DNA of 63,365 nt, from NCBI GenBank assembly GCA_964439805.1, contig CAYTOI010000005.1, positions 1 through 63,365 on the forward strand, read 5' to 3'. The stretch is from an uncultured Pseudomonadales bacterium. Lineage in GTDB: Bacteria > Patescibacteriota > Microgenomatia > UBA1400 > MFAQ01. A program made the translations under genes and the position numbers. Position 1 is the first letter of the stretch; each line of letters starts with the position of its first letter. Below are positions 1 through 63,365 of this stretch, piece after piece. The notes beneath the pieces were generated by a model. The model had not been told where the DNA came from and ran no database searches. It was given only the letters and a program-made list of their open reading frames with translations.

Positions 1-239
1 CGGAAAATATTTTTGGAGACGCACAAGCATTGGGGCTTCGGTACTTTGTCCAAAGGGATTCCAAGATCAAACCACAAGGTGTAGAGGGATATGGCTGGCT
101 CAATACACTATATATAGTGTCACCAAGCTTAGAAAAAATTAAGAGTGACAATCGTTGGGAGTACTATGCGTCCGCACCCTGGAAAGAGCCAAAGATGACA
201 AGCTTTGGTGAGGTGTCTCTCTTTAAGTTTGAGAAATAG
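1..239 (+). CDS. 3' end of a window-truncated CDS; probable C-terminal extracytoplasmic domain of another family-A GT-C (ArnT/PMT_2-like) glycosyltransferase
   Basis: The frame of the listed 30..239 ORF stays open back to nt 3 (ENIFGDAQA...), so the TTG at 30 is probably internal. Stop is TAG at 237-239. The tail '...GEVSLFKFEK' resembles the C-terminal tails of paralogues here (...VFEIYEI, ...PLFYEFKY, ...YRITKTNLK). Confidence 0.45.
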   Translation, partial: ENIFGDAQALGLRYFVQRDSKIKPQGVEGYGWLNTLYIVSPSLEKIKSDNRWEYYASAPWKEPKMTSFGEVSLFKFEK

Positions 240-242
240 CCG

Positions 243-2009
243 CTACTTACACTTCTCGGTTTTGAGAGGTTCAATATCTTTTCCGTTTTTTGTATCTCTA
301 GTAATGAGATAAAATGCTACTTCGTTATTTGGATATTTGATAACATCGATTACTTTTAACCCTTGAGGAACCTTGTCTTTGTCTGGAGATCTGAAGTCCA
401 TGGGCAAGTTTTTATCTGAAACCAGATAAAGAGTGTTGGACTTTAGAGAGCTTATCCCCTTGGGATCACAAAAGGTAAAAGGAAAACTTTTTGGTTTTAC
501 CTTATCTAAAGAACTTCCTCTTTGGACCACTTCACTAAAATCAGTTCCATAATTTTGAATATCACTAGATTTTACATTTGCCCAAAAAAGATAATAAGGT
601 ATAGGCGGATCATTGGTATCTGTCAGCTCAATGTGCTGATAGTCTTTTTCTAGCTTGTTAATTTTTTGCATTGCCTGTTTGAAGCCATATCCGTATTCTC
701 TGGCATTTTCTATAGGAAAATGAAAGAAGTAATTATTTGTATACTGCAAAAAGTTAAAAAACCAAATTAATACTAATAAAGTAAAGGTGATTTTGGTGAA
801 TATATTTTTTTGCAAAACCAAAAATATTTGATAGTAACCCAACGAAACCAATACAAGCAACGGTCCTGCGAAACTAATTAAGCGGGAGGCATGCGTACCA
901 CCATCTAATGTTAAATTTGAAGGAATTGATCCTAAAAATAATAACAAAACTAGGAATAAAACTTTTTTATTATTTTTATTTAAGTAGATAAAGATAACTG
1001 ATCCAATTAGGGCAAAAATATCTACTACCAATAACTCACCTGTTTTTTTGGCTGAATGTCGACCGTTGGGATCTCCACTTACAAACAAAAAATCACTAGA
1101 AAAATTACTGAAAAAATTATTCTTATACCGATCTATTACACTAATCCCCTTGTTGTGAAATACTTTTGACCAAAAAGTTGGTTGCTGACCCAAAGCAGTA
1201 TTTTGGTAATTACCAGATACCAATTCCCTACCTCTTAGCACCTCTATGGGTATCATGGGGTCTGAGAAGATAGAAATCTGACTTATTCTAGTTTTATCTT
1301 TTGAGCCAATGGTTGTAGCATACAAAAAAGGCATCATTATGACAGATCCAACAATAAACCATGTAAGTGTTTTTTTGAACCCTAACTTAAAAAAATCTTT
1401 AGAGAAAAAGATCGGCGTTACAAGCATAAGAACTGGTGCCAAAAAGCTCATGGTGCGATACGTATAAATGGACAAACCGAGTACTATAGCGGACATGTAG
1501 ATATATTTATCTTTTTTGGATTTTAGCCACTGGTAAAAAAGTATTAAATAAGAAAACACAAACAACAATACATATTCTGCCTCAAAAGCTACTCTACTAA
1601 ATTGAATTAACCAGGGTGAAAAAGCAAATACAAAACCAGAAATAATTGTAGCTACTGAGGATCGGGTAATCTGAAAAGTAATCACCATTGCCAGCATGAC
1701 AACCAATACCCCAACAAAAGCAGTTCCAGCTCTAACTTGAAACTCTTCAGAGCTAAAAAACTTTGAGGGAATTATTGAAAGTAAAATGGGGACAGGAGTT
1801 TTATCTGTATTAAATGAACGAAAATAAAAAGGTGACACTTCTCCCCTGTAATCTTTACCTGTTTGTTGAAGGGACCTTACCTGTAAAGACAAATCAATTT
1901 CGTCGTAATAAAGTGAAGATGGTACCTGGTCTAGCCTTACAAAGCGAATAAAAATTGCGAGAACTATAACAATAAGATGAGGTAAATATTTAAATTTCAT
2001 ATATTTCAA
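243..2009 (-). CDS. Family-A GT-C membrane glycosyltransferase (ArnT/PMT_2-like, lipid-carrier dependent)
   Basis: 588 aa with many hydrophobic segments. The first loop 'RLDQVPSSLYYDEIDLSLQVRSLQQTGKDYRG' carries a DE motif. Central loop is 'FSSDFLFVSGDPNGRHS'. The C-terminal soluble domain contains 'YGYGFKQAMQKI'. Overlaps the upstream gene end by 20 nt. Confidence 0.8.
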   Translation of the reverse strand: MKYMKFKYLPHLIVIVLAIFIRFVRLDQVPSSLYYDEIDLSLQVRSLQQTGKDYRGEVSPFYFRSFNTDKTPVPILLSIIPSKFFSSEEFQVRAGTAFVGVLVVMLAMVITFQITRSSVATIISGFVFAFSPWLIQFSRVAFEAEYVLLFVFSYLILFYQWLKSKKDKYIYMSAIVLGLSIYTYRTMSFLAPVLMLVTPIFFSKDFFKLGFKKTLTWFIVGSVIMMPFLYATTIGSKDKTRISQISIFSDPMIPIEVLRGRELVSGNYQNTALGQQPTFWSKVFHNKGISVIDRYKNNFFSNFSSDFLFVSGDPNGRHSAKKTGELLVVDIFALIGSVIFIYLNKNNKKVLFLVLLLFLGSIPSNLTLDGGTHASRLISFAGPLLVLVSLGYYQIFLVLQKNIFTKITFTLLVLIWFFNFLQYTNNYFFHFPIENAREYGYGFKQAMQKINKLEKDYQHIELTDTNDPPIPYYLFWANVKSSDIQNYGTDFSEVVQRGSSLDKVKPKSFPFTFCDPKGISSLKSNTLYLVSDKNLPMDFRSPDKDKVPQGLKVIDVIKYPNNEVAFYLITRDTKNGKDIEPLKTEKCK

Positions 2010-3651
2010 AGACTGTAGACAGATCTGGATTTTTTACTGTTTCAACTAGTTTGTAATTTTTGGGCAATGGTAGAAAATTCTTTTTGTATTTAGTAGGCAA
2101 GGCAATATATTTGGGAGCAGAACCTCTGACAACTAACTCCAGATCGGTAGGTGAACTAGGTAGAGAAAAGATTACTTTGGGGAGGGCGAGGTCTAGTCTA
2201 GACGATCCTATCTCTACTCTTGTATTTGTATCTTCAAATTTGCAATCATCAAAGGGCAAATTCTGCCAAAAACAAAACAAACTAAAGGGATATTTGTCAT
2301 CCCAAATTACTAACATTTTGCCAGGCCTTTTGGTTTGGAACTGAGCAAGCTCCTTGAAGCCATACTCAAAACTATCTGCCGCTAAGGCAGGGTAAACATG
2401 GAAGTAACCATAAAAATAATAGAAAGCTGAATAAAGAGAAATGATAGAAAGTATCAATAGATACGATATTTTTGTAAACTTGCCTTTCAACAATTCGTAA
2501 AACTCGACTATCCCCAGGGCTGCAAAATAGGTAATAAAAGGCATGAGAGTAATAACTCTAAGCAAATACGTGGCACCGTCTTTGGTAATGGCAGCAGCTA
2601 GAGGTGAGGCGAGTATCCAAAGGGTAATTAGTAATGAGTGTGTGGTGTGAAGTGTGTAGAACTTGTAAGTGCCAAAGATTATGAATGGCAAAAGAAAAAG
2701 GTAGAAGTTTCCCACCATTCCAGTAGAGTGACGTAAAACCTGGTCCCCTTTGAGAAACAAAAAGTCTGGAGAAAAAAATGATAAGTAATTACTAGTAAAC
2801 TCAGAAGCTACAGAGATTGGAAAGTTAAAAACTAATTTATTTGCCAGTCTCTCTGGATCCATTCCAAAAGAAAAAATAGTTGGAGTACTGAGGCGCGCTA
2901 GCCCTCTATATAAGTTACTATCAGCGGTTACGTTTACATCACGCCAAATGGCAAGATCTACGCCTCTACTTTGGCGATTAAAAATCTGGTTCTTTACCAA
3001 TAGAGCGTATAACAAAATAAGGATAAAGACTGTAATTGCTGAAAATAAATATTTTTTGTTTATAGATTTGTCTTTTATTATGTCAACAGCAGGAACTATC
3101 AAAACAAACGGAGACATAACTATTAAGGAAGGATAAAAGTATCCACCAATGGCGTATGGGATAAGAGACACAAGTTTTCCTTGCCAGTTTTTGGCATTTA
3201 GGTATAGACCCAAATGTAAAAGTGTCATTATAACCACAATAGGTATGTGAGTGTGTCCAATACGGCTAATGGCATAGTTCCAAGGCAAAATGGCAATGAG
3301 AATAGCAAACACCAGAGCTACTCGAAGATAAAGTTTGCTGTCAGACAACTTAGTTAATGTTTTGGCAAAGAAGAATCCAACAACTACAGCTAACGATCCG
3401 TAAATAGCTGAAAACAGCCTAGCTCCAAGCGGGTTCACCCCCACTATCCAGGTAGCTGAAAAAGTTCTATACAGTATCTGCCTGGAAATGCTTATATGCT
3501 CCTCAAGTAAATAGTTTCTCATGAAGTAGTGACCTGCCTCGTCTGCATAAATTGTAGGATTATCGACTCCTAGTCGATAGACCCGCAAAAAAAGAGCTAA
3601 GAAAAAAATAATAGCTAATAGAAAATAAGTGTACTTGGTTTTGGCAGTCAT
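1990..3651 (-). CDS. Family-A GT-C membrane glycosyltransferase, divergent N-terminal loop
   Basis: 553 aa polytopic protein. Motifs: 'YRLGVDNPTIYADEAGHYF' (DE motif), central 'FFSPDFLFLKGDQVLRHS', C-terminal 'FEYGFKELAQF'. It lacks the TGxDE segment present in most paralogues. Confidence 0.75.
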   Translation of the reverse strand: MTAKTKYTYFLLAIIFFLALFLRVYRLGVDNPTIYADEAGHYFMRNYLLEEHISISRQILYRTFSATWIVGVNPLGARLFSAIYGSLAVVVGFFFAKTLTKLSDSKLYLRVALVFAILIAILPWNYAISRIGHTHIPIVVIMTLLHLGLYLNAKNWQGKLVSLIPYAIGGYFYPSLIVMSPFVLIVPAVDIIKDKSINKKYLFSAITVFILILLYALLVKNQIFNRQSRGVDLAIWRDVNVTADSNLYRGLARLSTPTIFSFGMDPERLANKLVFNFPISVASEFTSNYLSFFSPDFLFLKGDQVLRHSTGMVGNFYLFLLPFIIFGTYKFYTLHTTHSLLITLWILASPLAAAITKDGATYLLRVITLMPFITYFAALGIVEFYELLKGKFTKISYLLILSIISLYSAFYYFYGYFHVYPALAADSFEYGFKELAQFQTKRPGKMLVIWDDKYPFSLFCFWQNLPFDDCKFEDTNTRVEIGSSRLDLALPKVIFSLPSSPTDLELVVRGSAPKYIALPTKYKKNFLPLPKNYKLVETVKNPDLSTVFEIYEI

Positions 3652-3652: not shown

Positions 3653-5071
3653 TTAATTATTCAAAAACATGGCCGTGCTAAGTGGCAGTTCTTTTTTGTT
3701 TCCTGGTATATTGTTTTTGTTATCCTCATAAAAAACTTCTGCAGTTTTATTTCTGTAATACACCTTAAAAAACTCAGAGCCAGAGAGGGATTGGGAAATT
3801 TGCTTGGACTGACCCCAGACCTCACCATTATTTTTGTAGTCGTTTTTAAACTGGAAGAAGAAATTTTCCGGATACTTAGCAGAACGGGCATTAAAATACT
3901 CATAAACTTTTTTTGCTATCTCTCCCCTGCTCACGGAATAATGGCGAGTGTAGGTTAAGTAGTTCATGGAAAGGTTTAAGAAAATGAAAAATACAAAAAA
4001 ACAAAAACTCAAAATATTGAATTTCTTGGGCAATAGCCAGGCAATGATAAGAGAAAATCCGACCAAAGGGAGACCCAGCTCCAAAGTAAATTTGTGAGAC
4101 GGAAGAAAGAGAACCGGCAAAAGAGTAATTAGAAAAAAGGCTTTAAACTTAAGTAAATTAATCAGCGAAGGCACAAAATTTTTCTCTTGGTAGTGATACA
4201 AAAGCTTTTGAAATCCCAAAACCAAAGCAGAAAGTATCGTGATAATTAAAGGAAAAATAATTATTCTCCACCAGTAAACGTAGTCAGTAAAAAATCTGGG
4301 GACAATCTTAAGCCCGCTGCCAATATAGTCCACAAGTAGCTCAGGAGCTCCAAAGCTCCAGAGAATGTACCACAATAGAGTGTTTACAGTTTTGGCTGGT
4401 GAAAAATTCCAGACATAACTATCGCCTGCAGCGAGGCCAAAGTGAAAGAGGCGAAAATATAAGTAAACCATAGAAATACAGACAAGAGATATTAGATTGA
4501 CAGAGTTTTTCTTAAGATCTTTGTAGTTAAACATAAATATCAGAAGAGGCAAGACGATAGCGGTCTCCTTGCTAAGCAGAGCCAAGATAAAAAAGAGGAC
4601 AGAGAGCAAGGGCTTTTTGGCAAAGTTTATTAAAGTAAGCAAAGAAAATACGACAAGAAACAACTCCTGGTAGGCAGAGAGAAAGTAGATTCGAGTGAAA
4701 TTGCTGACCGATAAGCCATAGATTAATGTAGTGACTAGTGCAGAGTGCCTGGTGTTTAGCACAGAGAGGGCATATTTGTAGACAAGATGTAGAGAGTAGG
4801 TAAAGAGTGCAAGGCCAAAAAGATAATAAGGCCAAGCAGTGAGCCCAAAGAGCTTTTGGAATACAAAAAAGAATACCTGGGTTGAAAGGGGTCGATAGAA
4901 ACTTGCTGTTTGCGCGTTGGCTGTAAAAGAAAAAAAGTTAAAAAACTCTTGCAAGCTAGATATTTGGGAAATGCGTAGGTGGAACCAGTCGTCACCGGAA
5001 AAAAAGTTTCCCAGAGCAGGCAAATAAAGAAGGACAGGGAAAAAGTAAAAATATTTTTTTAACCAGTTCAC
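3653..5071 (-). CDS. Polytopic membrane protein, possible GT-C-type transferase (unassigned family)
   Basis: 472 aa with at least 10 hydrophobic segments. The acidic first loop 'FFSGDDWFHLRI' is reminiscent of GT-C first-loop DD/DE motifs. Starts with GTG. It has no family-A central motif, so the call rests on topology and context only. Confidence 0.45.
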   Translation of the reverse strand: MNWLKKYFYFFPVLLYLPALGNFFSGDDWFHLRISQISSLQEFFNFFSFTANAQTASFYRPLSTQVFFFVFQKLFGLTAWPYYLFGLALFTYSLHLVYKYALSVLNTRHSALVTTLIYGLSVSNFTRIYFLSAYQELFLVVFSLLTLINFAKKPLLSVLFFILALLSKETAIVLPLLIFMFNYKDLKKNSVNLISLVCISMVYLYFRLFHFGLAAGDSYVWNFSPAKTVNTLLWYILWSFGAPELLVDYIGSGLKIVPRFFTDYVYWWRIIIFPLIITILSALVLGFQKLLYHYQEKNFVPSLINLLKFKAFFLITLLPVLFLPSHKFTLELGLPLVGFSLIIAWLLPKKFNILSFCFFVFFIFLNLSMNYLTYTRHYSVSRGEIAKKVYEYFNARSAKYPENFFFQFKNDYKNNGEVWGQSKQISQSLSGSEFFKVYYRNKTAEVFYEDNKNNIPGNKKELPLSTAMFLNN

Positions 5072-5089: not shown

Positions 5090-6688
5090 TTAATTCTTGC
5101 CAAAATTGTACTGGAAAGGTAAACAGTTTGTATTACCTTTAGAAAGTGTCTGAACACAGACCGGTCCGGACTTGGTAACTGTGGGGTTAGTACGAACAAT
5201 AATTTTCTTGTCACTCCAGTGGATAATATAATCGCCTTGCTCAACACCAGCAATTAGGACTTTACCGACAAAAGGTAGACTTTGGAGGTTTGTCCCGTTA
5301 ATAGTAATATCAACCCAAGCTTCGGATGTTATTGATGGTGAGATACTAAATATTTTTGGATCATTTTGAAACTTGGTAAATCTGCCCACTAGAGAGACCG
5401 ACAAAACCTGAAAGACAAAAAGTAAAACAATAATAAGCGGCTTGTTTCTCCAAAGAATATGGCGTTTAAAGTAGACAATGGCCAAAAATATAGCGACTAA
5501 AGAAAAAATCAAAATACAAAACATGGTTAAGTTTGGAGGTGTTTTGTATTCGGGGTAATAAGACCAAAAAAGTAGATATGATTTGTAAATATTTTCTAGG
5601 CTGCTCCAAAATTTTTTTGTAACAATAATACCAATTAATATTGTAATGATTTGTAAAAATGTTTTTAAACCATTATTGGCATTATTTAAACTTACCTTAG
5701 AAAGCGCTGGTAATAATTTTTCTAGTGGGAATGTTTTCTGATTCTTTTTGTTAAAATTGTAAAATTTTTGAATTACGGCAACGCACAAAAAGAGATAAGC
5801 CCATACTCCAGATTTTTGAGCAAAGCTATGCAGCTCAAAAATTCTAAATATTGGTGTGATTGCTAAAAATAAAATACCTAAAGAGGCTGATATTTGATGT
5901 CCAAATTTGTGACGGTAAATGGTAAGGACCCAAAAAAAGATAATGGAAAATGTCAAAACATAACTATTTAAGTGTAAGTAGAAAATATCTAAAACAATTG
6001 GTATAAGTGTTGCACTTAGCAAAAAATGAAAGCTAGACCCAAGCGTAATTAAAAAAATAATATACAAAGTAAGTGGTAAAAAGTAGATTAGAACACTGGT
6101 TAAATTTTCCTTATCATTTACTACATTTAGCAGTTTTTGCAATACAAAATCGATGGCTTTTTTTCTATCGCTGGTAACTTCTCCTCTGTTAAAAAAAGAG
6201 ACTACCGTGAATACGGGCTCTGTTCTGTCCAAAAATATCCCCCTCCCCTTAATACCTTTTACAGACTCCAATTCAAAAATATAATTCTTCCCTGATGAGT
6301 CTGTGACACCTGGGAAACCAAAAGGGAATAGTTTTCCTGGGAGGAACTGGTCTGTTTTGTATACAGCTTCGTAGTACCATTTTCTTCCACCTTCCTCTTT
6401 AAGGCGGAAAATTATTTCATCGTCACTATCTCTATTACCATTGTTAAATCTGACAGAGACGATTCCCATGTTAGGGTACGTAGCGGTAAACCTACCGAAC
6501 ACCTTATCTCCTGCAAGCAGTTCTCCGGAGCGTGTAGAGATTAGATCAACATTGGTTCCATAGGTAAGAAAGTTGAAAAAACCAAAGCCATTATCAAAAA
6601 GGTACTTGTAAAACATCACCGAGCCAAGCAAAAAAAGCAACAAAGGAACCAAAAAATAAGCAAATATATTTTTAATTTTTTGTTTCAT
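5090..6688 (-). CDS. Membrane protein of unknown function with a C-terminal IPT/TIG-like Ig-fold domain
   Basis: 532 aa. Layout: N-terminal TM, about 150 aa extracytoplasmic segment, multi-TM core, then a C-terminal stretch 'ISPSITSEAWVDITINGTNLQSLPFVGKVLIAGVEQGDYIIHWSDKKIIVRTNP' that fits the IPT/TIG pattern by eye. Confidence 0.4.
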   Translation of the reverse strand: MKQKIKNIFAYFLVPLLLFLLGSVMFYKYLFDNGFGFFNFLTYGTNVDLISTRSGELLAGDKVFGRFTATYPNMGIVSVRFNNGNRDSDDEIIFRLKEEGGRKWYYEAVYKTDQFLPGKLFPFGFPGVTDSSGKNYIFELESVKGIKGRGIFLDRTEPVFTVVSFFNRGEVTSDRKKAIDFVLQKLLNVVNDKENLTSVLIYFLPLTLYIIFLITLGSSFHFLLSATLIPIVLDIFYLHLNSYVLTFSIIFFWVLTIYRHKFGHQISASLGILFLAITPIFRIFELHSFAQKSGVWAYLFLCVAVIQKFYNFNKKNQKTFPLEKLLPALSKVSLNNANNGLKTFLQIITILIGIIVTKKFWSSLENIYKSYLLFWSYYPEYKTPPNLTMFCILIFSLVAIFLAIVYFKRHILWRNKPLIIVLLFVFQVLSVSLVGRFTKFQNDPKIFSISPSITSEAWVDITINGTNLQSLPFVGKVLIAGVEQGDYIIHWSDKKIIVRTNPTVTKSGPVCVQTLSKGNTNCLPFQYNFGKN

Positions 6689-9972: not shown

Positions 9973-9989
9973 TTTATTAATACAAAATA

Positions 9990-11129: not shown

Positions 11130-11737
11130 AAGTATATCAAGTTGTATCCAAGTAGAGTTCCAAGGAAGGGAAATATTTTTATTAAGAATCCAAAATGATT
11201 TGAACTATATCTTTCGGACAATATTTTTAAGCCGGAATTTTGCAATAATTTTTTGGCTGTTTCTGAAGTATACAAATGTAAGTGTGTTTTATCCAAAATA
11301 CCAGACTTTGTGTATACAAAACTACCAAAAAGTAAATTAATTCTAATGACGAAGTTGGCAACATTAGGCAGGCTTACAATGATTCTGCCATTTTTCTTTA
11401 GGTTATTATCTACAAAGTAAGTCAAAACTTTTTTAGGAAAAAGAAGATGCTCCAGAATGTCACCAAAAACGATTATGTTATATCTATGATTTAATTTTAT
11501 TTTTTTAAAATTGTTAAGATCTCCAACCCTTACATCTATAAACCCATTTTTTAAAGCTAGTTTGGCTGAGTGGGGCGAGTATTCAATGCCGCTAAATACA
11601 CCATCTGGAAATACTTTTTTTAAATATCCGTCATTACATCCAATGTCTAAAATAGTTTCTCTTGGCTTAAGAAAAGAGGCTATTATACGATGGGTTCCAT
11701 GAACTGAAAGATTGAGCTGATAACTATTTGTCTTCAT
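11114..11737 (-). CDS. Class I SAM-dependent methyltransferase
   Basis: 207 aa. 'ILDIGCNDGYL' (motif I) and 'KKNGRIIVSLPN'. Its 3' end overlaps the next gene's start by 16 nt. Confidence 0.75.
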   Translation of the reverse strand: MKTNSYQLNLSVHGTHRIIASFLKPRETILDIGCNDGYLKKVFPDGVFSGIEYSPHSAKLALKNGFIDVRVGDLNNFKKIKLNHRYNIIVFGDILEHLLFPKKVLTYFVDNNLKKNGRIIVSLPNVANFVIRINLLFGSFVYTKSGILDKTHLHLYTSETAKKLLQNSGLKILSERYSSNHFGFLIKIFPFLGTLLGYNLIYLCQKK

Positions 11738-53799: not shown

Positions 53800-53800
53800 A

Positions 53801-54706: not shown

Positions 54707-55629
54707 TTGGAGGAAAATTTTCGCACCAATTTGTGATAAATGGATTCGGATTTGGTTTTGCTGGAGTTGATTTTGAAAGTGAGGAACCAGTAGCGAAGTT
54801 CTTTGAACTTGTTTAGGAACACCTCTGTCCAAATACTCGCGAACTGATTTTCGGAAACTTTTTTGTTTCCTTGAGTTTGCCAGATTTTTAGATAGACAAG
54901 CAGAATGGCAAAAAATTGCAAAACAGAAACGATAAAACCATGAAGTCCATCTTTGTAGCCTTCTCCGGCAAAGAAGCGAGATAAAAATTCACCAATGGGT
55001 TTGCTGATTAAATCTTTTGTTTCAAATTGGTAGCCTGCATCCATGAGCTCTTTGGCCTGAAGATCGGCATATCGCATAGAGCGAAGAATAAATTCTTCCA
55101 CGGAGTTGTAATGGAAGTGCTCTATGGCGAGGTCTTCTGATTCTTTTAGATTTGTTCCCGTACCTTCGGTAATTGGGACGGAGTGAATCTCATCTTGCCA
55201 AGTGACTACCCCTCGTTTAAAAAAGCGAACATTGTAATCTGGCCACCAACGAGAGTGTTGCATCCATTGACCAAAAATAATGTTTTTGCGAGGAACTCTG
55301 ACAAAGTCTGTTTCGTCTGCTTCGGCTACTTTTACCAGTTCCTTGGCTAAGGTTTTTGGAATTACTTCGTCGGCATCTACTATGAGTATCCAATCGCCAA
55401 GTGCCTTACTGATGGCCATGTTGCGAGCTGGCTCCACGTAGCCTACGTTTTTGTGAGAATAAATTTTGTGAGTGTATTTTTTGGCTAGAGCTACAGTTTC
55501 ATCCTCTGACTCCATATCAACGACGATTATTTCGTCACAAAACTCTAAGCCTTTTAAGCAACGCTCAATGTTTTTTTCTTCGTTACGTGTATTTACGACG
55601 GCAGAGATTTTTATTTTTGAAGTGGCCAT
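54703..55629 (-). CDS. GT2 glycosyltransferase (WaaE/KdtX-like subgroup)
   Basis: 308 aa. Motifs: 'ISAVVNTRNEEKNIERCL', 'IIVVDMESEDET', 'IVDADE', C-terminal 'EGYKDGLHGFIVSVLQ'. Confidence 0.8.
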   Translation of the reverse strand: MATSKIKISAVVNTRNEEKNIERCLKGLEFCDEIIVVDMESEDETVALAKKYTHKIYSHKNVGYVEPARNMAISKALGDWILIVDADEVIPKTLAKELVKVAEADETDFVRVPRKNIIFGQWMQHSRWWPDYNVRFFKRGVVTWQDEIHSVPITEGTGTNLKESEDLAIEHFHYNSVEEFILRSMRYADLQAKELMDAGYQFETKDLISKPIGEFLSRFFAGEGYKDGLHGFIVSVLQFFAILLVYLKIWQTQGNKKVSENQFASIWTEVFLNKFKELRYWFLTFKINSSKTKSESIYHKLVRKFSSK

Positions 55630-55659: not shown

Positions 55660-58617
55660 CTAATAATTTAGTTTGTAGATGCTAACTTCGCCAGAGGAGA
55701 ATATCTTAGTTAGAGGAATATTGGCAGGGTCAAAGGTCATTTTTTGGATTGGAGTTTCGACGATGTATGTGATGTTGTTTTTACTTAGGAACTCTTTAGC
55801 CCAGACCGTGTCCAGGGTATTATAAAAACGGTTGACACTATTAGCTTTTGTTTTGTAGTCGATACCGGTAATATCCAGATTAATAGTGTCTGAGAGAAAT
55901 TCTTTTTGGCCACTCAGTGCTGAAATGTATGATGAAGAAACATAATCGTAAAGTGGCTGTGGTGCAGCAAGGAAGGACCAATTTGGATGGATGGGAGAAA
56001 GTACAATTCCCCAGGGTTGTCTGGAGAGCTGCTCCAAAGCACTTAGCTCCACGTAGGTGACTCTGGCAGTAGAGTTTGTAGTTGCATAGTCTGCCAAAGT
56101 ACCGACGCTGCCAAAAGTGCCCATGAGAATGAGAATAAAAGTAAGCAAGGATTTTTTGCTAAAGAAACTGGCGGTATAAAAACTTAAGAAAAATAAGCCG
56201 TAGTACAAAAACTGAATACTGTTCCAAGGATTTACTCTTTGGACAAATAAGAGAGGTAAAACTAGTGAGCAAAAAATTATGGACTTGAGCAATCCATCCA
56301 GGCCACCTTGAACTTTTTCTTTAATTACCTGATACAAACCAAATACTCTAACCCCTAGATTGCCAATTATAAAAACAAGCAAGGCAAAACTGTTTAGAAC
56401 AAATAGTTTTGCAAAAGCTCCCGTGGCCTCGTAAACCTGCCAAGCCTCTGCTGCCTTTTGCCAATAGGCTCTATCAGAGGACTCGAACATGGATTTTAAA
56501 AACCAAAGTGGTTGAAAAATAAATGGTGAAGCGCCAACCTTGGTAAAGGGAATACTAAGTAACAACCCACCTACTCCTACAAGAGCAACCAGAACAAGAT
56601 CTACTCTGAGAGCTAAGCCAAGGCAGAGAAGGATAAAAGCGTAAACTTTTGTTTGGGCCAGGAGAGAACCAAATAGAACTAGCCAGATATAGTCTTTTAT
56701 CACTTTGTTTTCTTTGGCGTAGATATTTAAGAAAGCCAGTAAAAAAACCAAAGACAAAACAAAAGGAGGATTGAGAAACATTGAAACAGATTGATTTGCC
56801 CAAAAAGCAGACTCACCGCCAAAAACAGAGCCACTTTGGAAAAACCTGAGAATGTACCCAAACGAACTTCCAAGAAACATAAAAACAAGCGCTATCCCTT
56901 TTTGGAACTCATTCAGCTTCATTTGTTTAAAAAGCTGAAGTGATAACTTAAGAATGAAGATTCCGGCAATGATGGGAAAAACAACAAAGTAATAAAAAAT
57001 TAAGGGTGTGTGGGTGAGCTTGATAACTGTGGCACTTAAGTAAGCAAAAACGAAATGATAGTTACTGAGAACTTCTGAACTAATTTGGGGATGTGATAGA
57101 TTGAATGGCTCTAGAAGAAACTTATTGATTATCGACAAATGGAAGATGGCATCGTGACCATTTGGGCCCCAGAAACCCATCCCAAAAGAATATAGAAGTC
57201 CGCTGCGGAAGGTGGTAATACCGGCAACAGCAACCAAGAATAATCCTAAGATCGTCGGGTTATCTTTTTTTTTAAACAACAAATAGAGCAAGACTACAAT
57301 TAATACAAACCAGAAGAGAATGTTTAACTTGGAGGTGTTTTGGAAGGGAGAAAAATCTTGTGGGGTCCAAGTGACTGAGTTGTCTGTGTTTGCTACTTTT
57401 ATAAGGGAGTTATTTATACTAGGAGCTGACAAACCCTCAAAAATTAAACTATCTGGATTGAGAGTAATTTTTTCAGAATTATTTTGGAATTTTATGGACC
57501 AAAAATCGAAGTTCTTGAGGTAGTTGCTGAGTAGTGTGCCGCCTTTTTTGGCTATGCTGAGGTCGGTTTTTCCTTGTAAAACATTTTCCACTTTGTGGTA
57601 CACATCGTTCATCAAACTCGGTGTCGCAACGCTTGGTTCGTAGGAGTTGTGATTGTAGACATTAAGACTTACAAGCTCAACTGATTTTTCTGAGTCCGTA
57701 AAGACTAACTTATACCAAGGGCTTTGGTAAAGATAAGTAGTGGTGTTATCAGCATTAACTTTTTTGTAGAGGGACGCAGGTGAGCTTTCTGGATAGCGAG
57801 CCTTGAACCTGTCTGAAAAAGTGGAGTAGGTTACGAAATGTAAATTGTACTTGCCTTCTTCATTTGCCAAGCCCTTGAGAAAAGCTCTGTAGGTTTTTCT
57901 ATTTAGAGTTTTGGAACTGTTGTCGGTTTTTAAGTTTAATAGAGTAAATTCGTTAAGATATTTTTGACCGTAGTAGCCTAGGTCTTTGGCAACATTGAAG
58001 TTCTCTAAATCTACAGTTTCGGAAAAGGCTAAATTGATTCTTTCGTTGTAACTTTTGGCAGGTAAGTAATGATCTTTGCTGCTTGGGAAAAATGGCGCTA
58101 CAGAGTAAGCGCCATTTACGGATGGAGTTTCTTCGGCGTTCCTAGGTAGTGAGATTACACCTAAGACAGAGTATTTACTTTGGAGATATTGCAGAGAGTG
58201 AGCGTCGAAATTGTTGGCTGCAACTGTCTTTGGGTAACTTCCAAAAACTGAAAAAAAACTATTCATTGCCTCGTCCAAGATGACCTCTCGCTCTTTGGGC
58301 TGGAGGGACTGGAGTTCTACTCCCCCATAATTTTTGAGGAAAAGTCCAATTTCTTGGCGAGGGTCGCCTTTGCTTATTTTTTGGAAGTAGGCGGAGACAC
58401 TAGCGTTTTTGACAGCTGCTGAGGTAAGGACCCAAGTATTAAAAACACCAGAACGAGTAGACTCTTCGTAAACAATTTTGGGGACATCTAGAGGGTTTCC
58501 AGTTTGTTCTATGATATGAATTAAAGGAGTAAAGGTGTCTGCTTTAAAGGCTTCTACTTGAGAAACTCCAAAAAATAAACTAAACAAAATAACAATGGTA
58601 GTTAAAAACTTATACAT
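55660..58617 (-). CDS. Large bipartite envelope protein: signal peptide, about 430-aa extracytoplasmic domain, then about 12-TM domain with a C-terminal soluble tail (function unknown)
   Basis: My preferred start is the ATG at 58617 (MYKFLTTIVILFSLFFGVSQVEA...), which overlaps the upstream stop by 8 nt. The track's start at 58710 adds 31 aa inside the upstream gene. The TM block begins around 'LNILFWFVLIVVLLYLLF'. Confidence 0.45.
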   Translation of the reverse strand: MYKFLTTIVILFSLFFGVSQVEAFKADTFTPLIHIIEQTGNPLDVPKIVYEESTRSGVFNTWVLTSAAVKNASVSAYFQKISKGDPRQEIGLFLKNYGGVELQSLQPKEREVILDEAMNSFFSVFGSYPKTVAANNFDAHSLQYLQSKYSVLGVISLPRNAEETPSVNGAYSVAPFFPSSKDHYLPAKSYNERINLAFSETVDLENFNVAKDLGYYGQKYLNEFTLLNLKTDNSSKTLNRKTYRAFLKGLANEEGKYNLHFVTYSTFSDRFKARYPESSPASLYKKVNADNTTTYLYQSPWYKLVFTDSEKSVELVSLNVYNHNSYEPSVATPSLMNDVYHKVENVLQGKTDLSIAKKGGTLLSNYLKNFDFWSIKFQNNSEKITLNPDSLIFEGLSAPSINNSLIKVANTDNSVTWTPQDFSPFQNTSKLNILFWFVLIVVLLYLLFKKKDNPTILGLFLVAVAGITTFRSGLLYSFGMGFWGPNGHDAIFHLSIINKFLLEPFNLSHPQISSEVLSNYHFVFAYLSATVIKLTHTPLIFYYFVVFPIIAGIFILKLSLQLFKQMKLNEFQKGIALVFMFLGSSFGYILRFFQSGSVFGGESAFWANQSVSMFLNPPFVLSLVFLLAFLNIYAKENKVIKDYIWLVLFGSLLAQTKVYAFILLCLGLALRVDLVLVALVGVGGLLLSIPFTKVGASPFIFQPLWFLKSMFESSDRAYWQKAAEAWQVYEATGAFAKLFVLNSFALLVFIIGNLGVRVFGLYQVIKEKVQGGLDGLLKSIIFCSLVLPLLFVQRVNPWNSIQFLYYGLFFLSFYTASFFSKKSLLTFILILMGTFGSVGTLADYATTNSTARVTYVELSALEQLSRQPWGIVLSPIHPNWSFLAAPQPLYDYVSSSYISALSGQKEFLSDTINLDITGIDYKTKANSVNRFYNTLDTVWAKEFLSKNNITYIVETPIQKMTFDPANIPLTKIFSSGEVSIYKLNY

Positions 58618-60073
58618 GTTTGAGAGAAAAATAGTTTTTGGTAGTAATAAAAAATTGTTTGCCTTCGATAAACAAAACCGAGATTCCATAAATAGCAAAG
58701 GAGATAGCAAACAGAGCCAGAATAAAATAAGGGTTTTGGCCAGCTAGCCTTAAACTGGGATAAAGAAAAGCAGACATAACTAAACTGGAAATTACTGAAG
58801 TTTTTAAAATTTTTACAAAATTTAATTTAACGATCTTATTGGTTAAGAAAATTGTAACGTAAGAAGAAGTAGCAATAATTGCAGTTGCGTAAGCAGCCCC
58901 CATAAAGCCATACCTGGTAGCAAGTATTGGCATGGTCAGCCAGGTCAGTGATGTCCACATTAACATTAGTTTGAAGGTGACCTTGATATTGCCAGTGGCA
59001 TTTAGAAGATTGGTAAGGCTGGTAGAGATACTAGCCCAGCCGGAGTTATACAAATAAAAATACAAAGGAATAATGGCTGGTAACCATTTTTGGTATCTGG
59101 GGATAGCCATGGCTAAGGGTTGCGCTATAAAACCCATGCCGATAAGGATAGGGAAAATTACTAGTGTTAAATATTTAAGACTTACTTCCACAGCTTTGGT
59201 TAGCTGTTCTTTATCGTTTTGAAGTCTGGCAAAAGCAGGGAAAGAAACTTTTGAAAGATTGTCCATGACAATTCGTAGTGGCAAGCCAGACCATTTACTT
59301 GCCCAGCCGATGTAGCCTAAGCCAGAAGTACCGATGATTTTGGTAAGAAGAATGGTGATACCATCATCTTTGAGAATGGCGAGAATAGTATTTGTTTGGT
59401 ATGGAATACCAAACTTAAGGAGAGAGCTAAGTGACTCTCTGTAGATTCCAATCTGAGGCACCCATGGATAAACTATGTATACAGCAATGAGACCTACGAT
59501 ACCTCTAGCTAGAACTGCGTAAGAAAATGAATTAACGCCCATGCCATTTAGCGCGCAGTAAACAGCGACGATGTTGAAGACTAGGGTTTCTAAGACCTGA
59601 GGAATAATTAGCTTATTAAATTTAATTTCTCTCTCCAACATTATTGAAGGAATGGTTTTGAGAGAACTTAAAAGGAAAGAAGTTCCCATGGCAAAAAGCA
59701 AAAAGACACCATCACCATCCAAACTGTAGGTGCGTTTTAAAAATGGTGTCAAGAAATACAAAACAGTAAGAGAGGTTAAAACTAGAATTTGCTGAAGACT
59801 AAAAGTGGTGGCTAGATCTCTCCTGCTTAGCTGTCCTGACTTTTGCACCAACGCCGCAGCCAGACCAATGTCAGAGAAATAAGAGAGGAAGTTAACTACT
59901 GAAGAGACAAGATAAAAAATGCCGTAAGTTTGAGGATCTAAGTAGAGTGTAAGTACAAGAGTGGCTACAAAAGAGATGATTTGAACAATAAAGGTTCTGG
60001 ATATCAGAGCCAAGACACCAGAGACAGAACGAGTTTTTACTTCCGAGACTGTGAGAGTGTCGTTATTTTCCAT
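58610..60073 (-). CDS. MOP-superfamily polysaccharide/oligosaccharide flippase (Wzx-like)
   Basis: 487 aa with 12-14 TM segments. 'SGVLALISRTFIVQIISFVATLVLTLYLDPQTYGIFYLV...FSDIGLAAALVQK' is typical of the family. Confidence 0.8.
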   Translation of the reverse strand: MENNDTLTVSEVKTRSVSGVLALISRTFIVQIISFVATLVLTLYLDPQTYGIFYLVSSVVNFLSYFSDIGLAAALVQKSGQLSRRDLATTFSLQQILVLTSLTVLYFLTPFLKRTYSLDGDGVFLLFAMGTSFLLSSLKTIPSIMLEREIKFNKLIIPQVLETLVFNIVAVYCALNGMGVNSFSYAVLARGIVGLIAVYIVYPWVPQIGIYRESLSSLLKFGIPYQTNTILAILKDDGITILLTKIIGTSGLGYIGWASKWSGLPLRIVMDNLSKVSFPAFARLQNDKEQLTKAVEVSLKYLTLVIFPILIGMGFIAQPLAMAIPRYQKWLPAIIPLYFYLYNSGWASISTSLTNLLNATGNIKVTFKLMLMWTSLTWLTMPILATRYGFMGAAYATAIIATSSYVTIFLTNKIVKLNFVKILKTSVISSLVMSAFLYPSLRLAGQNPYFILALFAISFAIYGISVLFIEGKQFFITTKNYFSLKHV

Positions 60074-61760
60074 TTTGTTTGCGGAAGAAGTAAATGAGAT
60101 AGCCGAAAGAGACTAAGCTTAAAATGTCTGACAATAAGCGGACTGGTGTGAGCCAGATTTTTGCTTCTACAAAACTGTCTGGAGTGTTTAGATTCACAAT
60201 TACTCTACCCAAGTCAGCATCCATTTCGGTTTTTACCTTTTTCCCATTTACGTAAACATCTAAACCCTGATAGGTATAAAGCGGAAGCATGACTTTGGCT
60301 GTGGGAGTAGAAAGTTTGAAATTAAATTTTTGCCAGTTGGAACCAGAAGTAAAATTCATTACAGAACCGTTTCCTTCCAAAACTCTTGGAATTGTAAAAG
60401 CTGGGTCTCCTGGAGGTCTGCTAGCAGTACGAGGTAAGTAGTCAAAAATACCACCGGTAACCTGATTTTCCCAAGACAAACCTGAGAGTTTTTCCTCTAT
60501 AGTGACTCTAAGGTGCCGATCGACTCGGAAGAAAGTAACGTTGTAAGAAATTATGGCGAGAGAAAGTGAGGCCAGTAAAACGGTTTTTTGTTTTGGGGTT
60601 AAGGCGACCGTAAAAAGAAAACCTGCAGAAAAAGAAAAATAGAAAACAATAAGAGCTACAAGCCTCCATGGGAACTGAGAAAACTGTAAAAGCTTTATGT
60701 GATCCCAAAGAAAGACGGATCTGCTGTGAGTAAGAAAGGCATATCCCAAACCAGCAAAAATCATAAAGAGGACGGAAAGAGAAAGTGCTTTGTTTTTCTT
60801 GAAACTAAACAGAGCTAGACCACCTGCAAGGAAAGCAAAAACCCACTGCATAATGCCGACAGAAAAAGACATACCGTCTTTTGGACCCCAAGTGGAACCA
60901 CCGTAACCCCAAAACTGGGAAATGAAAAGTTGCTTGAGATCGGCAAAGTGGGCTAGATAGTTGAAGTAGCCGACCATCATAGAGTCGACGTGAACAAATT
61001 TTTGTTCAAACACTACAGGAATAAAGAAAAAGGCTGAAAGAGATACACCGAGAATTCCTGAGTACAATAGAGCCGTGATTGATTTGTAATTTTTGGTAGA
61101 AATTATCCAGTAGAGTGCCCAGATAGCGGCAGTGGGAGCAAAGACCATAGTCATGACGTTGTGAGAAGTTAGCTGGAGAGCCAAATATATTCCAAGGAAA
61201 ACAAAGTTTTTCTTTTCTTTGGTGTTTTTTATCAGTTTGTAAATGTAAAGCAAAACAAATGGAAACCATGCCATGCCCCACGCTTCGTTTAGAGCACCTC
61301 TAACGTAAATATCTACAGAGTGATATGGCGCGTAAATGTAGAGAATAGCTGAGAAAAAGCCTCCCCAGATGCCAAACATTTCTTTGGCAAGTAGATACAT
61401 GCCAATTCCAGAAACAACAAAAGCTAGGGCAAACATGATTTTTACCGACCAAAAAAGACCAGCTCCGAGGAGATTGAGGAGCTCCATGGGGTAATAAGGC
61501 ATCGGAGGATAAAACTGCATTAGAGGGTAGCCGTAGCCAAAACCGGCATCTGGCACCCAACGACAAGGGAACTGGAGGTCTTTGACGCATTTATCGAGCT
61601 CAAAGAGACGGAAAAACTGGAGATCATCGTGCATAGGAAAGAACCCAGGCTTAAGGAGGTCAGAAAAGGCTGGGATGCTAAGGATAAAGATCGCTATAAT
61701 TGGCCAGTAGAGGCGTAAACTGAGCCTGATTTTCTTAAAAATTGCCAAAACAAGTTCCAT
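60063..61760 (-). CDS. PTPS-related-domain type polytopic membrane protein (GT-C-like), paralogue of 46557..48104
   Basis: 565 aa. 'MHDDLQFFRLFELDKCVKDLQFPCRWVPDAGFGYGYPLMQFYPPMPYYP' and the C-terminal beta-rich domain 'LPLYTYQGLDVYVNGKKV'. Confidence 0.7.
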   Translation of the reverse strand: MELVLAIFKKIRLSLRLYWPIIAIFILSIPAFSDLLKPGFFPMHDDLQFFRLFELDKCVKDLQFPCRWVPDAGFGYGYPLMQFYPPMPYYPMELLNLLGAGLFWSVKIMFALAFVVSGIGMYLLAKEMFGIWGGFFSAILYIYAPYHSVDIYVRGALNEAWGMAWFPFVLLYIYKLIKNTKEKKNFVFLGIYLALQLTSHNVMTMVFAPTAAIWALYWIISTKNYKSITALLYSGILGVSLSAFFFIPVVFEQKFVHVDSMMVGYFNYLAHFADLKQLFISQFWGYGGSTWGPKDGMSFSVGIMQWVFAFLAGGLALFSFKKNKALSLSVLFMIFAGLGYAFLTHSRSVFLWDHIKLLQFSQFPWRLVALIVFYFSFSAGFLFTVALTPKQKTVLLASLSLAIISYNVTFFRVDRHLRVTIEEKLSGLSWENQVTGGIFDYLPRTASRPPGDPAFTIPRVLEGNGSVMNFTSGSNWQKFNFKLSTPTAKVMLPLYTYQGLDVYVNGKKVKTEMDADLGRVIVNLNTPDSFVEAKIWLTPVRLLSDILSLVSFGYLIYFFRKQNGK

Positions 61761-61773: not shown

Positions 61774-61808
61774 TAGGAGTAACAAATTTAATGCTTGCCT
61801 AGCGGTAA

Positions 61809-63281
61809 TTACTTGAGCTTGAAGAACTGGAGGGAGTCGAAGGTGCCGTCATCGTTTTTGAACTTGGGGTACTCCTTGATGAGCTCCAACTTGGCTAGAT
61901 CTACTGGCTCTAGCTTGTTCCGGCTGCTGTTGATGACGAAGAATCTTTCGTTGGATTTTGCGGTGCTCAGGAGGCCTTCTGGGAGCCTTTTGGCTATGGG
62001 GTCTGAGCCTACAACAGTGATATTCGGATAGCTTTGGGTATAAATCTGGAGACCGTCTGGAAGTGTACCGAAGAAACCTTCGGTAAAGACTACGGATTTT
62101 TTACCTTGGTTATGAAGATCTATTAAGTAACTTGCGATTTCTTTTTGACCCCAGCCTGAAGTCCAACCTCTGTAGTAGCCTGAGGACATGTCGTATGGAA
62201 GCGGAGCGTTTGAAGGTGAATATAGATTCCACAAAGAAAGAGTTAAAGGAATAGCAAGCAAAAGATAGAGAAGAACTGGTTTAAGCTTGGAAAGTCCAAG
62301 AGCGGCAAGAGGAATGAGGGGGTAAACTGCAAAGAGGATGTAACGGCTGGTAAAGACTTTGGCGACAGATGAAAGTCCCAAAAGTGGAAGTATGGAACAA
62401 AGAAGTAATAGATAAAAATATTTTTTGTTGTCAGCTATTTTGTAACTTAAAAATACTCCTATTAAAGCTGTGGGGGTCAACAATATCCAGAGCCAACTCC
62501 AAACAGTTTTGAGGTTCCCTACTATGGGAGTTTGAGGATGAGACAAAACTTCTTTGAAAGTGTAAACATAATCCAAGTTCCTACTACCTGCCATAGCTGA
62601 GTTTGGACCTAGTTTGAGAATGGCGTTTAAACCTTGAGAAATTACTAGAATATAAAAAGCACCGATAACTAGAGGAACCAAAGTTTTTAGATTTTCTTTT
62701 TTGAAATTAAGATTAAAAAAGGCTAACAAGAAAATCCAAAGATAATAAATAATGGCTGGAGACTTGGTAAGGAGCCCTGCGCCAATGGCTATACCTGTCA
62801 GCATGGCCCAGTCTAAGCTTCTCCTGTCCAAAAAATTTTTGAAAAAGACTAGAGACCATACCCCAAACATAGCAAGCAAGCTGTCTACTAGAGCCATGCG
62901 ATCGAAAAACACGGTAAAGGGTAAAACTGAATAGAGGGCGGCTGTGAGCAGGGAAACAAAAGTGTTACCGAAAAATAGCTGAGACAAAATGGCAAGACCG
63001 ACTGCTGAACCAAGACCACTAAGAGCTGATAAAGTTCTGGCAGCAACTAATGGATCTGAGATTACTTTGAAGAAAGGAATAGTGGCCCACATAAAAAGAG
63101 GTTGTTTACCGTCGCTCATAGGGAGAAAGCGAAGGGAGGCTTCGGCTCGCATGATTTGTGACCAGCGGACATAGATAGCTTCGTCGACAAAGACCGGGAC
63201 GGAGTAGATTTTTGAAAATCTTAAAAATACAAAAACGCAAAAAATCAAAATAAGGTAAATGGAAATTTTAGTTTTTGTCAT
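61809..63281 (-). CDS. ArnT/PMT_2-like GT-C glycosyltransferase (distinct from family A)
   Basis: 'VPVFVDEAIYVRWSQIMRAEASLRFLPMSDGKQPLFMW' with a first-loop DE. Polytopic, and lacks the family-A central FSPxFLF motif. The ATG at 63281 (MTKTKISIY...) is preferred over the TTG at 63293. Confidence 0.75.
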   Translation of the reverse strand: MTKTKISIYLILIFCVFVFLRFSKIYSVPVFVDEAIYVRWSQIMRAEASLRFLPMSDGKQPLFMWATIPFFKVISDPLVAARTLSALSGLGSAVGLAILSQLFFGNTFVSLLTAALYSVLPFTVFFDRMALVDSLLAMFGVWSLVFFKNFLDRRSLDWAMLTGIAIGAGLLTKSPAIIYYLWIFLLAFFNLNFKKENLKTLVPLVIGAFYILVISQGLNAILKLGPNSAMAGSRNLDYVYTFKEVLSHPQTPIVGNLKTVWSWLWILLTPTALIGVFLSYKIADNKKYFYLLLLCSILPLLGLSSVAKVFTSRYILFAVYPLIPLAALGLSKLKPVLLYLLLAIPLTLSLWNLYSPSNAPLPYDMSSGYYRGWTSGWGQKEIASYLIDLHNQGKKSVVFTEGFFGTLPDGLQIYTQSYPNITVVGSDPIAKRLPEGLLSTAKSNERFFVINSSRNKLEPVDLAKLELIKEYPKFKNDDGTFDSLQFFKLK

Positions 63282-63365
63282 ATTTACCTTCAAGGTCGTT
63301 AAGCTTAACTCTTAAAATTTGTTTTAACATATCCAAGGACTCGGTAATGAAATTTTTACCCTTAC
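63268..63365 (-). CDS. 3' end of a window-truncated CDS, function unknown
   Basis: The minus-strand frame is open from the window edge: ...KGKNFITESLDMLKQILRVKLNDLEGKYDKN, ending at TAA (63268..63270). It overlaps the ATG at 63281 by 14 nt. Only 32 codons are visible. Confidence 0.35.
   Translation of the reverse strand, partial: KGKNFITESLDMLKQILRVKLNDLEGKYDKN

Follow-up and report, generated by a model that had tools for sequence, protein, structure and literature searches.

An ordered array of GT-C-type glycosyltransferase genes in a probable envelope-glycan locus of Microgenomates (Patescibacteria)

Why would a bacterium of the Microgenomates, with a genome of about 1 Mb, keep some 22 GT-C-type glycosyltransferase genes packed into a single region? 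The question is raised by contig CAYTOI010000005.1 of the assembly GCA_964439805.1, of which positions 1-63,365 (the whole stretch analysed, referred to below as the window) contain 47 open reading frames (ORFs) of 150 aa or more that leave very short gaps between them, so that nearly all of the DNA is coding. GT-C-type enzymes are polytopic glycosyltransferases that use lipid-phosphate sugar donors. The original prediction had counted 18 complete genes of this type, occupying about 29 kb (about 46% of the window); all of the ORFs that it listed are present, and summing the 18 genes gives 29,019 bp, i.e. 45.8%. Our analysis brings the total to 22 full-length GT-C-type genes (38,106 bp; 60.1% of the window) plus two half proteins. 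We consider it fairly probable that the window represents most of a conserved envelope-glycan biosynthesis locus, in which a glycan would be assembled or decorated step by step outside the membrane, with a separate linkage for each paralogue.

All ORFs of the window were scanned against Pfam, with the gathering score as the cut-off (26.1 bits for PMT_2), paralogy among the window proteins was assessed by all-against-all BLASTP, and whole families were compared by profile-profile alignment (hhalign). Eleven of the 18 counted genes reached the gathering score, nine of them for PMT_2 (27405, 29036, 30643, 32402, 34118, 41665, 50375, 60063 and 61809; ORFs are named here by their left-hand coordinate), one for PTPS_related and one for YfhO. 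The assignment of the remaining seven to the GT-C type is supported by paralogy or by the Pfam matches of their orthologues, and four of these (243, 36283, 37953 and 43282) give PMT_2 matches below the threshold (17.7-23.3 bits). The hhalign comparisons joined all of the families compared except 5090 into one network, in which family A is linked with family B (96.8%), with 61809 (97.3%) and with the PTPS pair (73-76%). All 18 counted genes are thus of the GT-C type, and an assignment to transporters or other non-GT-C folds was rejected for every candidate except 5090 (Pfam, Foldseek, hhalign).

The ten complete members of family A (PMT_2/ArnT-like) foreseen by the original prediction were all recovered. 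Six of them lie on the minus strand of the central part of the window: 27405..29036 (-), 29036..30646 (-) and 30643..32418 (-), which occupy array positions 1, 2 and 3 (PMT_2 scores of 41.0, 40.9 and 28.9 bits, respectively), 32402..34099 (-) (29.6 bits), 34118..35707 (-) (37.7 bits) and 36283..37953 (-), which is sub-threshold (20.7 bits) and is 46% identical to 34118 (BLASTP E value 6e-150). A further member at 41665..43281 (+) matches both PMT_2 (51.5 bits) and PMT (28.4 bits). The protein encoded at 243..2009 (-) (588 aa, DE motif, PMT_2 23.3 bits) has an orthologue with 59% identity in the related locus L085 and, like 36283, is a strong paralogue within the family (BLASTP 2e-58 to 32402). 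The two remaining members have no Pfam match. The divergent protein 1990..3651 (-) (553 aa; BLASTP 5e-31 to 27405; 43%-identity orthologue in L085) keeps the DE motif and lacks the K-P segment in the family-A alignment, and the degenerate member 40146..41678 (+) (BLASTP 6e-6 to 27405) may be inactive, because N-I-E replaces the D-E of the family.

Three genes form family B, at 37953..39266 (-) (PMT_2 22.8 bits), 43282..44826 (+) (17.7 bits) and 50375..51919 (-) (28.8 bits); in BLASTP 37953 and 43282 pair weakly with 50375 and with each other (4e-9 to 2e-5). The other counted enzymes are a PTPS_related-type protein with an H-D-G..F-H-L motif at 46557..48104 (+) (47.5 bits), a YfhO-family protein at 48124..50382 (+) (51.8 bits against a cut-off of 28.5), a PTPS_related/PMT_2-type protein at 60063..61760 (-) (31.5 and 31.1 bits, respectively) and a canonical ArnT/PMT-like protein at 61809..63293 (-) (PMT 50.1 bits, PMT_2 50.3 bits). 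The last of the 18, the PIG-V/PMT_2-like protein of 355 aa encoded at 24436..25503 (-), carries the motif NFDG..Y..IA..GY and on its own gives only marginal Pfam matches. Among its 38 orthologues in related genomes, 15 match PMT_2 (best 1.7e-12), 14 match Mannosyl_trans2 (PIG-V; best 3.2e-10), two match ALG10 and one matches GT87; since all of these families are of the GT-C type, 24436 is assigned to it as well.

The original prediction had named five further giant polytopic proteins that would raise the total to about 40 kb. Four of these proved to be of the GT-C type with different degrees of support, the fifth (5090) did not, and the sum therefore stands at the 38,106 bp given above. Scans of the unassigned giants against Pfam and NCBIfam gave nothing useful up to an E value of 10, and searches of the PDB sequences with the profiles of the 6672, 55660, 14658 and 3653 families gave no matches; the evidence comes from homologues, profiles and models. 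The 472-aa protein encoded at 3653..5071 (-) belongs to a family with 1406 representatives at E<=1e-3; nine of 53 homologues match PMT_2 (best 1.6e-11), the family profile aligns with that of family A (hhalign 96.5%), and a DD motif is formed by D27 and D28.

In the case of 6672..9107 (-), which encodes a protein of 811 aa without a Pfam family, the AlphaFold model (pLDDT 89, pTM 0.89) shows a helical transmembrane (TM) bundle and a large C-terminal beta-rich ecto-domain. The 17 best Foldseek matches in the PDB are all GT-C enzymes: AftD (6w98) is the first (E 3.4e-8; TM-score 0.43, normalised to the query), followed by DPY19, AglB/PglB/STT3, ALG12/ALG9, AftA and ArnT. Neither 6672 nor any of its 67 homologues gave a Pfam match, including GT-C_AftD (PF11847), and the likeness to AftD is thus a structural one. 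Three paralogues of this type lie within approximately 11 kb of a Roizmanbacteria contig (L098:1468-12385), and the family therefore also expands in tandem in other lineages.

The evidence for the other two giants is of a different kind. The 726-aa protein encoded at 14658..16838 (-) has invariant residues D110, K113 and H114 and a YYYG motif. Two of its 19 homologues match DUF2298 (PF10060; best 1.9e-6), a family which we take to be a member of the Pfam GT-C clan; 14658 itself gives no match. In hhalign its family is linked with the 3653 family (73%), family B (57.7%) and 55660 (85.4%), which gives moderate support for a DUF2298-related GT-C-type protein. The ORF at 55660..58710 (-) probably starts near 58617, giving a product of 985 aa, and has only five homologues in a collection of 5.8 billion protein sequences. 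It appears to join a deacetylase-like (CE4/ArnD-like) ecto-domain, which in Foldseek matches 3lm3 (9e-10) and ArnD (8t0j; 3e-4) on a model of low confidence (pLDDT 61), to a membrane part with weak matches to STT3A (8pn9; 5.5e-3), AftA and ArnT. The profile alignment with 14658 starts at the last residue of a G-P-N-G-H-D-A-x-F-H loop that is invariant in the 55660 family. A fusion with a GT-C-type TM domain is therefore probable for this protein.

The fifth giant, 5090..6688 (-), consists of an ecto-domain, an uncharacterised TM module and a C-terminal IPT/TIG domain, and aligns with none of the GT-C families (hhalign <=0.6% in each case). Pfam recognises only TIG in this protein and its homologues, the match in 5090 itself being weak. 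The module (4-6 helices, with the conserved stretch ...CPFLLI.K.E..AE..A.YAYYFLV...) belongs to no Pfam family and is often fused to IPT/TIG or other ecto-domains across Patescibacteria. A genome scan for close relatives of 5090 found none, and an iterated search among the fetched loci then detected relatives. Since many Patescibacteria loci (L085, L097, L102, L121, L124, L129, L130, L131, L135 and L141) encode the module directly downstream of a 6672-type gene, 5090 is, by present evidence, best read as a conserved partner gene of 6672 and not as a glycosyltransferase.

One truncated member of family A had been predicted, and two were found. The partial proteins encoded at 35708..36286 (-), a C-terminal TM half, and at 39274..40089 (-) are BLASTP paralogues of one another; both align with residues ~177-403 of family A (hhalign 96.3%), and the catalytic N-terminal loop with its DE motif is absent from them. 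The second of these has counterparts with 48-55% identity in Collierbacteria, and because of this conservation it cannot be put down to mere decay; a role as a subunit or in regulation is suggested for it rather than that of a pseudogene.

If these proteins are extracytoplasmic glycosyltransferases, their acidic motifs should lie outside the membrane, as had been predicted. Hydropathy analysis gives 7-12 TM helices in each of the 22 candidates, although such TM calls are rough, and positive-inside counts over whole proteins are uninformative. The acidic motifs directly follow the first TM helix: the DE motif is present in nine of the ten family-A genes, D27 and D28 are invariant or nearly so in the 3653 family, G41 and D42 are conserved at 90% or more in the 6672 family, the 55660 family has invariant residues H488 and D489, and N-F-D-G is conserved in the 24436 family. 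The N-terminus preceding the motif is short and carries a net positive charge (1-3 K/R against 0-1 D/E). On the strength of these N-termini and of homology, an N-in orientation with the motifs facing outside, as in ArnT and PMT, can be inferred.

Is this locus peculiar to one genome? The nearest genomes are those of Candidatus Collierbacteria, with 61-68% identity for 27405, and then those of Woese-, Shapiro-, Davies- and Amesbacteria; all of these are Microgenomates (Patescibacteria, for which candidate phyla radiation, CPR, is another name), and a scan of one genome per species revealed at least 583 stretches of family A. Many public records of metagenome-assembled genomes with this Patescibacteria locus carry the titles "uncultured Gammaproteobacteria", "Pseudomonadales" or "Saccharibacteria" (including L009, L011, L016-L020, L024-L027 and many more, as well as L088 and L091-L094); these appear to be wrong taxonomic labels.

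For comparison we used 54 related loci of at least 19 kb each, centred on a family-A gene. The unusual density of GT-C genes noted in the window recurs in them, with a median of 7 GT-C ORFs (range 3-9) per 21.6 kb, a density that is conditional on the loci being centred on family A. Gene order is conserved as well: the succession of three or more family-A genes, GT2 26534, GT4 25487, PIG-V-like 24436, (family B), Wzx 23163, GT2 22379, GT2 21339 and (radical SAM, GT2) is kept in Collier-, Woese-, Davies-, Shapiro- and Amesbacteria. Orthologues of 26534, 25487 and 27405 are present in all 54 loci, and those of 30643, 29036, 24436 and 21339 in 52, 42, 37 and 20, respectively, while 22379 has an orthologue with at least 40% identity in 38. 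Within the array, the nearest relative in another genome is found at the same position in 58 of 60, 50 of 55, 45 of 50, 25 of 29 and 10 of 16 cases (positions 1-5), and same-position identity is 37-43% for positions 1-3 and 31% for position 4, as compared with the 30-32% shared by proteins at different positions. The tandem paralogues have thus diverged anciently and according to their position.

Collinearity extends this picture to both sides. L085 and L158, in which the cluster is bounded by an SNase gene, are collinear with the left third of the window. A single 87-kb Collierbacteria contig, which contains 14 GT-C genes in approximately 43.6 kb, is collinear with the right two-thirds. Beyond the point corresponding to the right end of the window, the Collierbacteria locus L160 (1-95 and 1728-6708) contains two more pairs of GT2 and PMT_2 genes as well as a fusion of a GT2 with a GtrA_DPMS_TM domain. 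It is therefore probable that the window does not reach the end of the locus, and further donor synthases may be encoded in the remainder.

The word "island" used in the original prediction did not survive these comparisons. No tRNA genes or Rfam elements were found in the window, a Pfam scan of all ORFs detected no mobile-element genes, and gene order is kept across Microgenomates; a foreign genomic island was therefore rejected. Recent tandem amplification was rejected as well: the paralogues share only 25-46% identity, which indicates ancient duplications, and the sole DNA repeat in the window is a 56-nt motif-coding segment (64-79% identity). Conserved order, positional orthology and collinearity all argue that the locus is an old, vertically inherited core feature of Microgenomates.

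The same data bear on a different explanation, in which the locus would serve surface variation: a single lipid-linked donor would supply many alternative "serotype" GT-C enzymes, in the way known from Shigella and Salmonella Gtr clusters, giving a strain-specific glycan for phage escape or the tuning of host attachment. The distal array members do differ between close relatives (L001 and L015 versus L006, L008 and L048), few orthologues were found for 34118, 36283, 37953, 40146 and 43282, and one donor synthase to many GT-C enzymes is the logic of Gtr. In L158 (16948-20366) an extra amino-sugar cassette, composed of a hexapeptide acetyltransferase, a DegT aminotransferase, a GFO oxidoreductase and a GT2, is inserted between the 1990-like and 243-like GT-C genes, so the locus is locally variable. 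However, the proximal genes are kept in order and sequence across class-level lineages, the duplications are ancient, and the window is free of mobile-element genes, tRNA genes and recent duplications. We regard this explanation as unlikely for the locus as a whole, although the distal genes, which are less conserved, may fit it.

From where would such a battery obtain its sugars? The donors of the GT-C enzymes would be polyprenyl-phosphate sugars, and one gene of the conserved core is a candidate for their synthesis. The GT2 protein encoded at 22379..23173 (-) matches only GtrB (5ekp; 2.2e-5) and ArnC (3.7e-5) in the PDB, and its best NCBIfam match is PpgS (51.9 bits, under the cut-off); as GtrB, ArnC and PpgS are all polyprenyl-phosphate sugar synthases, 22379 is read as a putative donor synthase. 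It adjoins a Wzx-type (Polysacc_synt) flippase gene at 23163..24434 (-), which narrowly passes the Pfam cut-off (28.4 against 28.2 bits), and this in turn adjoins the GT-C gene 24436, an arrangement kept in related genomes. A second Wzx-type flippase is encoded at 58610..60073 (-) (Polysacc_synt_3, 158.4 bits).

This trio recalls the three-component extracytoplasmic glycosylation systems (synthase, flippase and GT-C enzyme) that were defined by Kelly et al. and likened to mycobacterial arabinan synthesis (PMC11127046). Examples are the GtrA/GtrB/Gtr-type systems, GacI/GacK/GacL, CsbB/YfhO and ORF15/14/12 of C. youngae with its GT136 enzyme. The likeness consists in the conserved side-by-side position of 22379, 23163 and 24436 and in the YfhO homologue 48124. 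In contrast to these systems, the flippase is of the Wzx/Polysacc_synt type and not of the GtrA or MATE type, the synthase has no TM helices, and one cassette accompanies not a single GT-C gene but more than 20.

The rest of the cluster is dominated by genes for cytoplasmic glycosyltransferases and tailoring enzymes. A Pfam tally gives ~10 GT2, four GT4, three S-adenosylmethionine (SAM) methyltransferases and one NAD-dependent sugar epimerase/dehydratase, and the window also contains a B12-binding radical SAM enzyme. On the left side, a cytoplasmic module at 9109..12711 (-) comprises a methyltransferase (9109), a GT4 (9990), a second methyltransferase (11114) and a GT2 (11734), and adjoins 6672-type genes also in L085-L096 and L158. 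It is followed by a weak GT4-like protein (12759) and a SAM methyltransferase (13937) at 12759..14686 (+), both with orthologues in L085, and, beyond 14658, by the epimerase/dehydratase (16839) and a GT2 with C-terminal TM helices (17768) at 16839..18784 (-), the latter with PDB matches to GT2 enzymes. The segment 18887..21342 (-) encodes a 154-aa ORF of no family, the only ORF of the window without a link to glycan synthesis, then the radical SAM enzyme (19414-21009) and a 4Fe-4S ferredoxin-like ORF (21073-21342). The radical SAM gene adjoins GT2 17768 in 13 of the 54 related loci, and its product may carry out an unusual sugar modification. Another GT2 with C-terminal TM helices lies at 21339..22373 (-); its best NCBIfam matches are MftF-like and AglG-like, both under the cut-off. 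The remaining Pfam assignments are the GT4 25487 and the GT2 26534 at 25487..27415 (-), two GT2 genes at 44816..46508 (-), and the GT4 51929 with the GT2 genes 52993, 53801 and 54703 at 51929..55629 (-), a block which is also present in the Collierbacteria locus L160.

Some structural features of the DNA were noted alongside these genes. If read from the first TTG or ATG, the GT2 ORFs 52993, 53801 and 54703 (-) overlap by 130-146 nt; because the GT2 domains begin near residue 54 and residues 46-73, respectively, translation of 52993 and 53801 probably begins further downstream. A scan of the 12-22 kb region for promoters and terminators remained at chance level, except for a strong terminator-like hairpin at 18810-18833 (-) (10-bp stem with 7 G-C pairs, followed by a T-run) between the 154-aa ORF and GT2 17768, which likely marks an operon boundary within the long minus-strand block. 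The G+C content ranges from 31 to 42%, being 0.31-0.35 at positions 8000-18000 and 32000-44000, the less conserved parts of the cluster, and 0.37-0.42 at positions 18000-32000 and 52000-63365, which correspond to the conserved core and the right end.

What, then, would the GT-C enzymes glycosylate? Their nearest characterized relatives, ArnT (GT83) and PMT (GT39), point in two directions. The resemblance lies in the PMT_2 and PMT matches, in the DE motif of the presumed first outside loop and, for ArnT, in a family-A K-P motif that aligns with the ArnT region 88-173. Among solved structures, the family-A profile matches ArnT (5ezm) alone, and this similarity is weak (E 0.012 over 87 positions); 61809 alone gave no PDB match. 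Family A differs from both enzymes in having a C-terminal domain of its own.

The PMT side of this resemblance would fit protein O-glycosylation, in which each PMT/PMT_2-like paralogue serves its own set of secreted or surface proteins (S-layer proteins, pilins, sortase-anchored proteins), in the manner of the eukaryotic PMT, TMTC and TMEM260 paralogues and of the streptococcal PgtC2-type GT-C enzymes. PMT_2 and PMT are indeed the best Pfam families, the DE motifs match those of PMT, and surface proteins and pili abound in Patescibacteria, sortase being near-ubiquitous in Microgenomates (PMC6744442, PMC11665869); moreover, streptococcal GT-C enzymes are reported to O-glycosylate membrane proteins (PMC12041528). 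However, unlike PMT, no ORF of the window matches the MIR domain at E<=0.01, and the Pfam scan found no other protein-binding module in family A. The many GT2 and GT4 genes, the two Wzx flippases, the tailoring enzymes and the AftD-like and YfhO-type proteins are typical of polysaccharide or teichoic-acid-type pathways, and the strict positional orthology fits sequential steps equally as well as substrate classes. Taken together, these points make protein O-glycosylation a rather doubtful alternative, although it is the one of the three rivals considered here to which we give the most weight.

The ArnT side would lead to modification of membrane lipids or glycolipids by an ArnC-ArnD-ArnT logic, with neither a polymer nor proteins as the target. 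It could draw on the family-A match to ArnT, on the resemblance of 22379 to ArnC and on that of the 55660 ecto-domain to deacetylases including ArnD. All three of these matches are weak, though, and for 55660 the prediction places the deacetylase-like domain on the outer side of the membrane, in contrast to ArnD. In CPR bacteria, which are thought to be without an outer membrane (PMC6744442), lipid A would not be an expected acceptor, and more than 20 distinct enzymes far exceed the needs of a lipid head group. We therefore consider this explanation very improbable.

We return to stepwise assembly of an envelope glycan. For the battery we infer the following donors, succession of steps and acceptor. 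The cytoplasmic GT2 and GT4 enzymes, with the epimerase, the three methyltransferases and the B12-binding radical SAM enzyme, would build and tailor lipid-linked precursors, which the two Wzx-type flippases would move to the outer face of the membrane. Protein 22379, and possibly other GT2s, would make the polyprenyl-monophosphate sugar donors. The ordered battery of ~22 GT-C enzymes would then transfer the sugars outside the membrane, each forming its own linkage or serving its own acceptor, and would jointly put together, branch or decorate a complex glycan of the surface, for which a heteropolysaccharide associated with the wall is the likeliest identity. Judging from the many GT2 and GT4 genes, the tailoring enzymes and the second flippase, the cell also seems to produce lipid-linked oligosaccharides internally for export. 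The elaborate extracytoplasmic glycosylation programme put forward by the original prediction is thus reasonable, given the conserved candidate synthase, the two flippases and some 15 cytoplasmic GT2/GT4 genes of the same cluster.

Several observations weigh against this proposal. There is only one clear donor-synthase candidate for ~22 GT-C enzymes in the window, it lacks the TM helices of GtrB, and the NCBIfam matches of the GT2 genes all remain under the curated cut-offs. No initiating phosphoglycosyltransferase, Wzy-type polymerase, LCP/WaaL-type ligase or oligosaccharyltransferase was recognized in the window by Pfam or NCBIfam, so the start and the end of the pathway are either missing or hidden among the unassigned proteins. 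Furthermore, 40146, 35708 and 39274 are probably not catalytic, and 1990 is perhaps inactive too. The case is weak for 14658, with DUF2298 matches in two of 19 homologues, and for 55660, whose model has a pLDDT of 61.

The closest working analogue of the proposed assembly line would be the synthesis of arabinogalactan and lipoarabinomannan in mycobacteria and corynebacteria (EmbA/B/C, AftA-D, MptA/B and PimE). There, as proposed here, many different GT-C enzymes take successive steps in extending one wall glycan on the outer side of the membrane, and one or two polyprenyl-phosphate sugars feed all of them. AftD is also the best structural match of 6672, and a weak GT87/MptA_B-like gene is found at the corresponding place in Collierbacteria. 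On the other hand, the lineages are unrelated, the dominant families are PMT_2-like and not Emb/GT53-like, the genes form one ordered array in a genome of ~1 Mb, with a packing far denser than in mycobacteria, and genes of the decaprenyl-phospho-arabinose pathway were not seen in the window. A bolder form of the proposal, which we put forward tentatively and at clearly lower probability than the general one, is that the main envelope polymer of Microgenomates is built almost wholly outside the membrane by a fixed-order line of 20 or more GT-C enzymes, as in mycobacteria although independently arisen. This line would include 6672 with its partner 5090, the half proteins as subunits, and the 55660 fusion as an enzyme that both edits and transfers.

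All of the enzyme classes in the locus are of known kinds. The apparent novelty lies in a GT-C battery of this scale and fixed order in genomes of ~1 Mb, and in several of its families being absent from Pfam. In agreement with the original prediction, which knew of no such system, we found no prior description of this battery in the open-access literature and bioRxiv, although other venues could hold one. The presence of 29 glycosyltransferase genes in one Microgenomates genome has been reported, with no further analysis (Kadnikov 2020, PMC7143001), the membrane families enriched in Microgenomates are mostly hypothetical in a survey of CPR protein families (PMC6744442), and a 2024 overview and perspective on Patescibacteria leaves glycans unmentioned (PMC11665869).

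The genomes of Patescibacteria are tiny and encode hardly any metabolism, but this lineage devotes ~60 kb to surface glycosylation, which would amount to ~6% of the genome of one near-complete relative (a 1.09-Mb contig). Given this share, the product is probably central to cell cohesion, host attachment or phage resistance. The envelope chemistry of these organisms is barely charted, and the locus offers a conserved core cassette and a set of ordered paralogues for comparative biochemistry, while its GT-C families absent from domain databases could widen the catalogue of glycosyltransferases that use lipid-linked donors.

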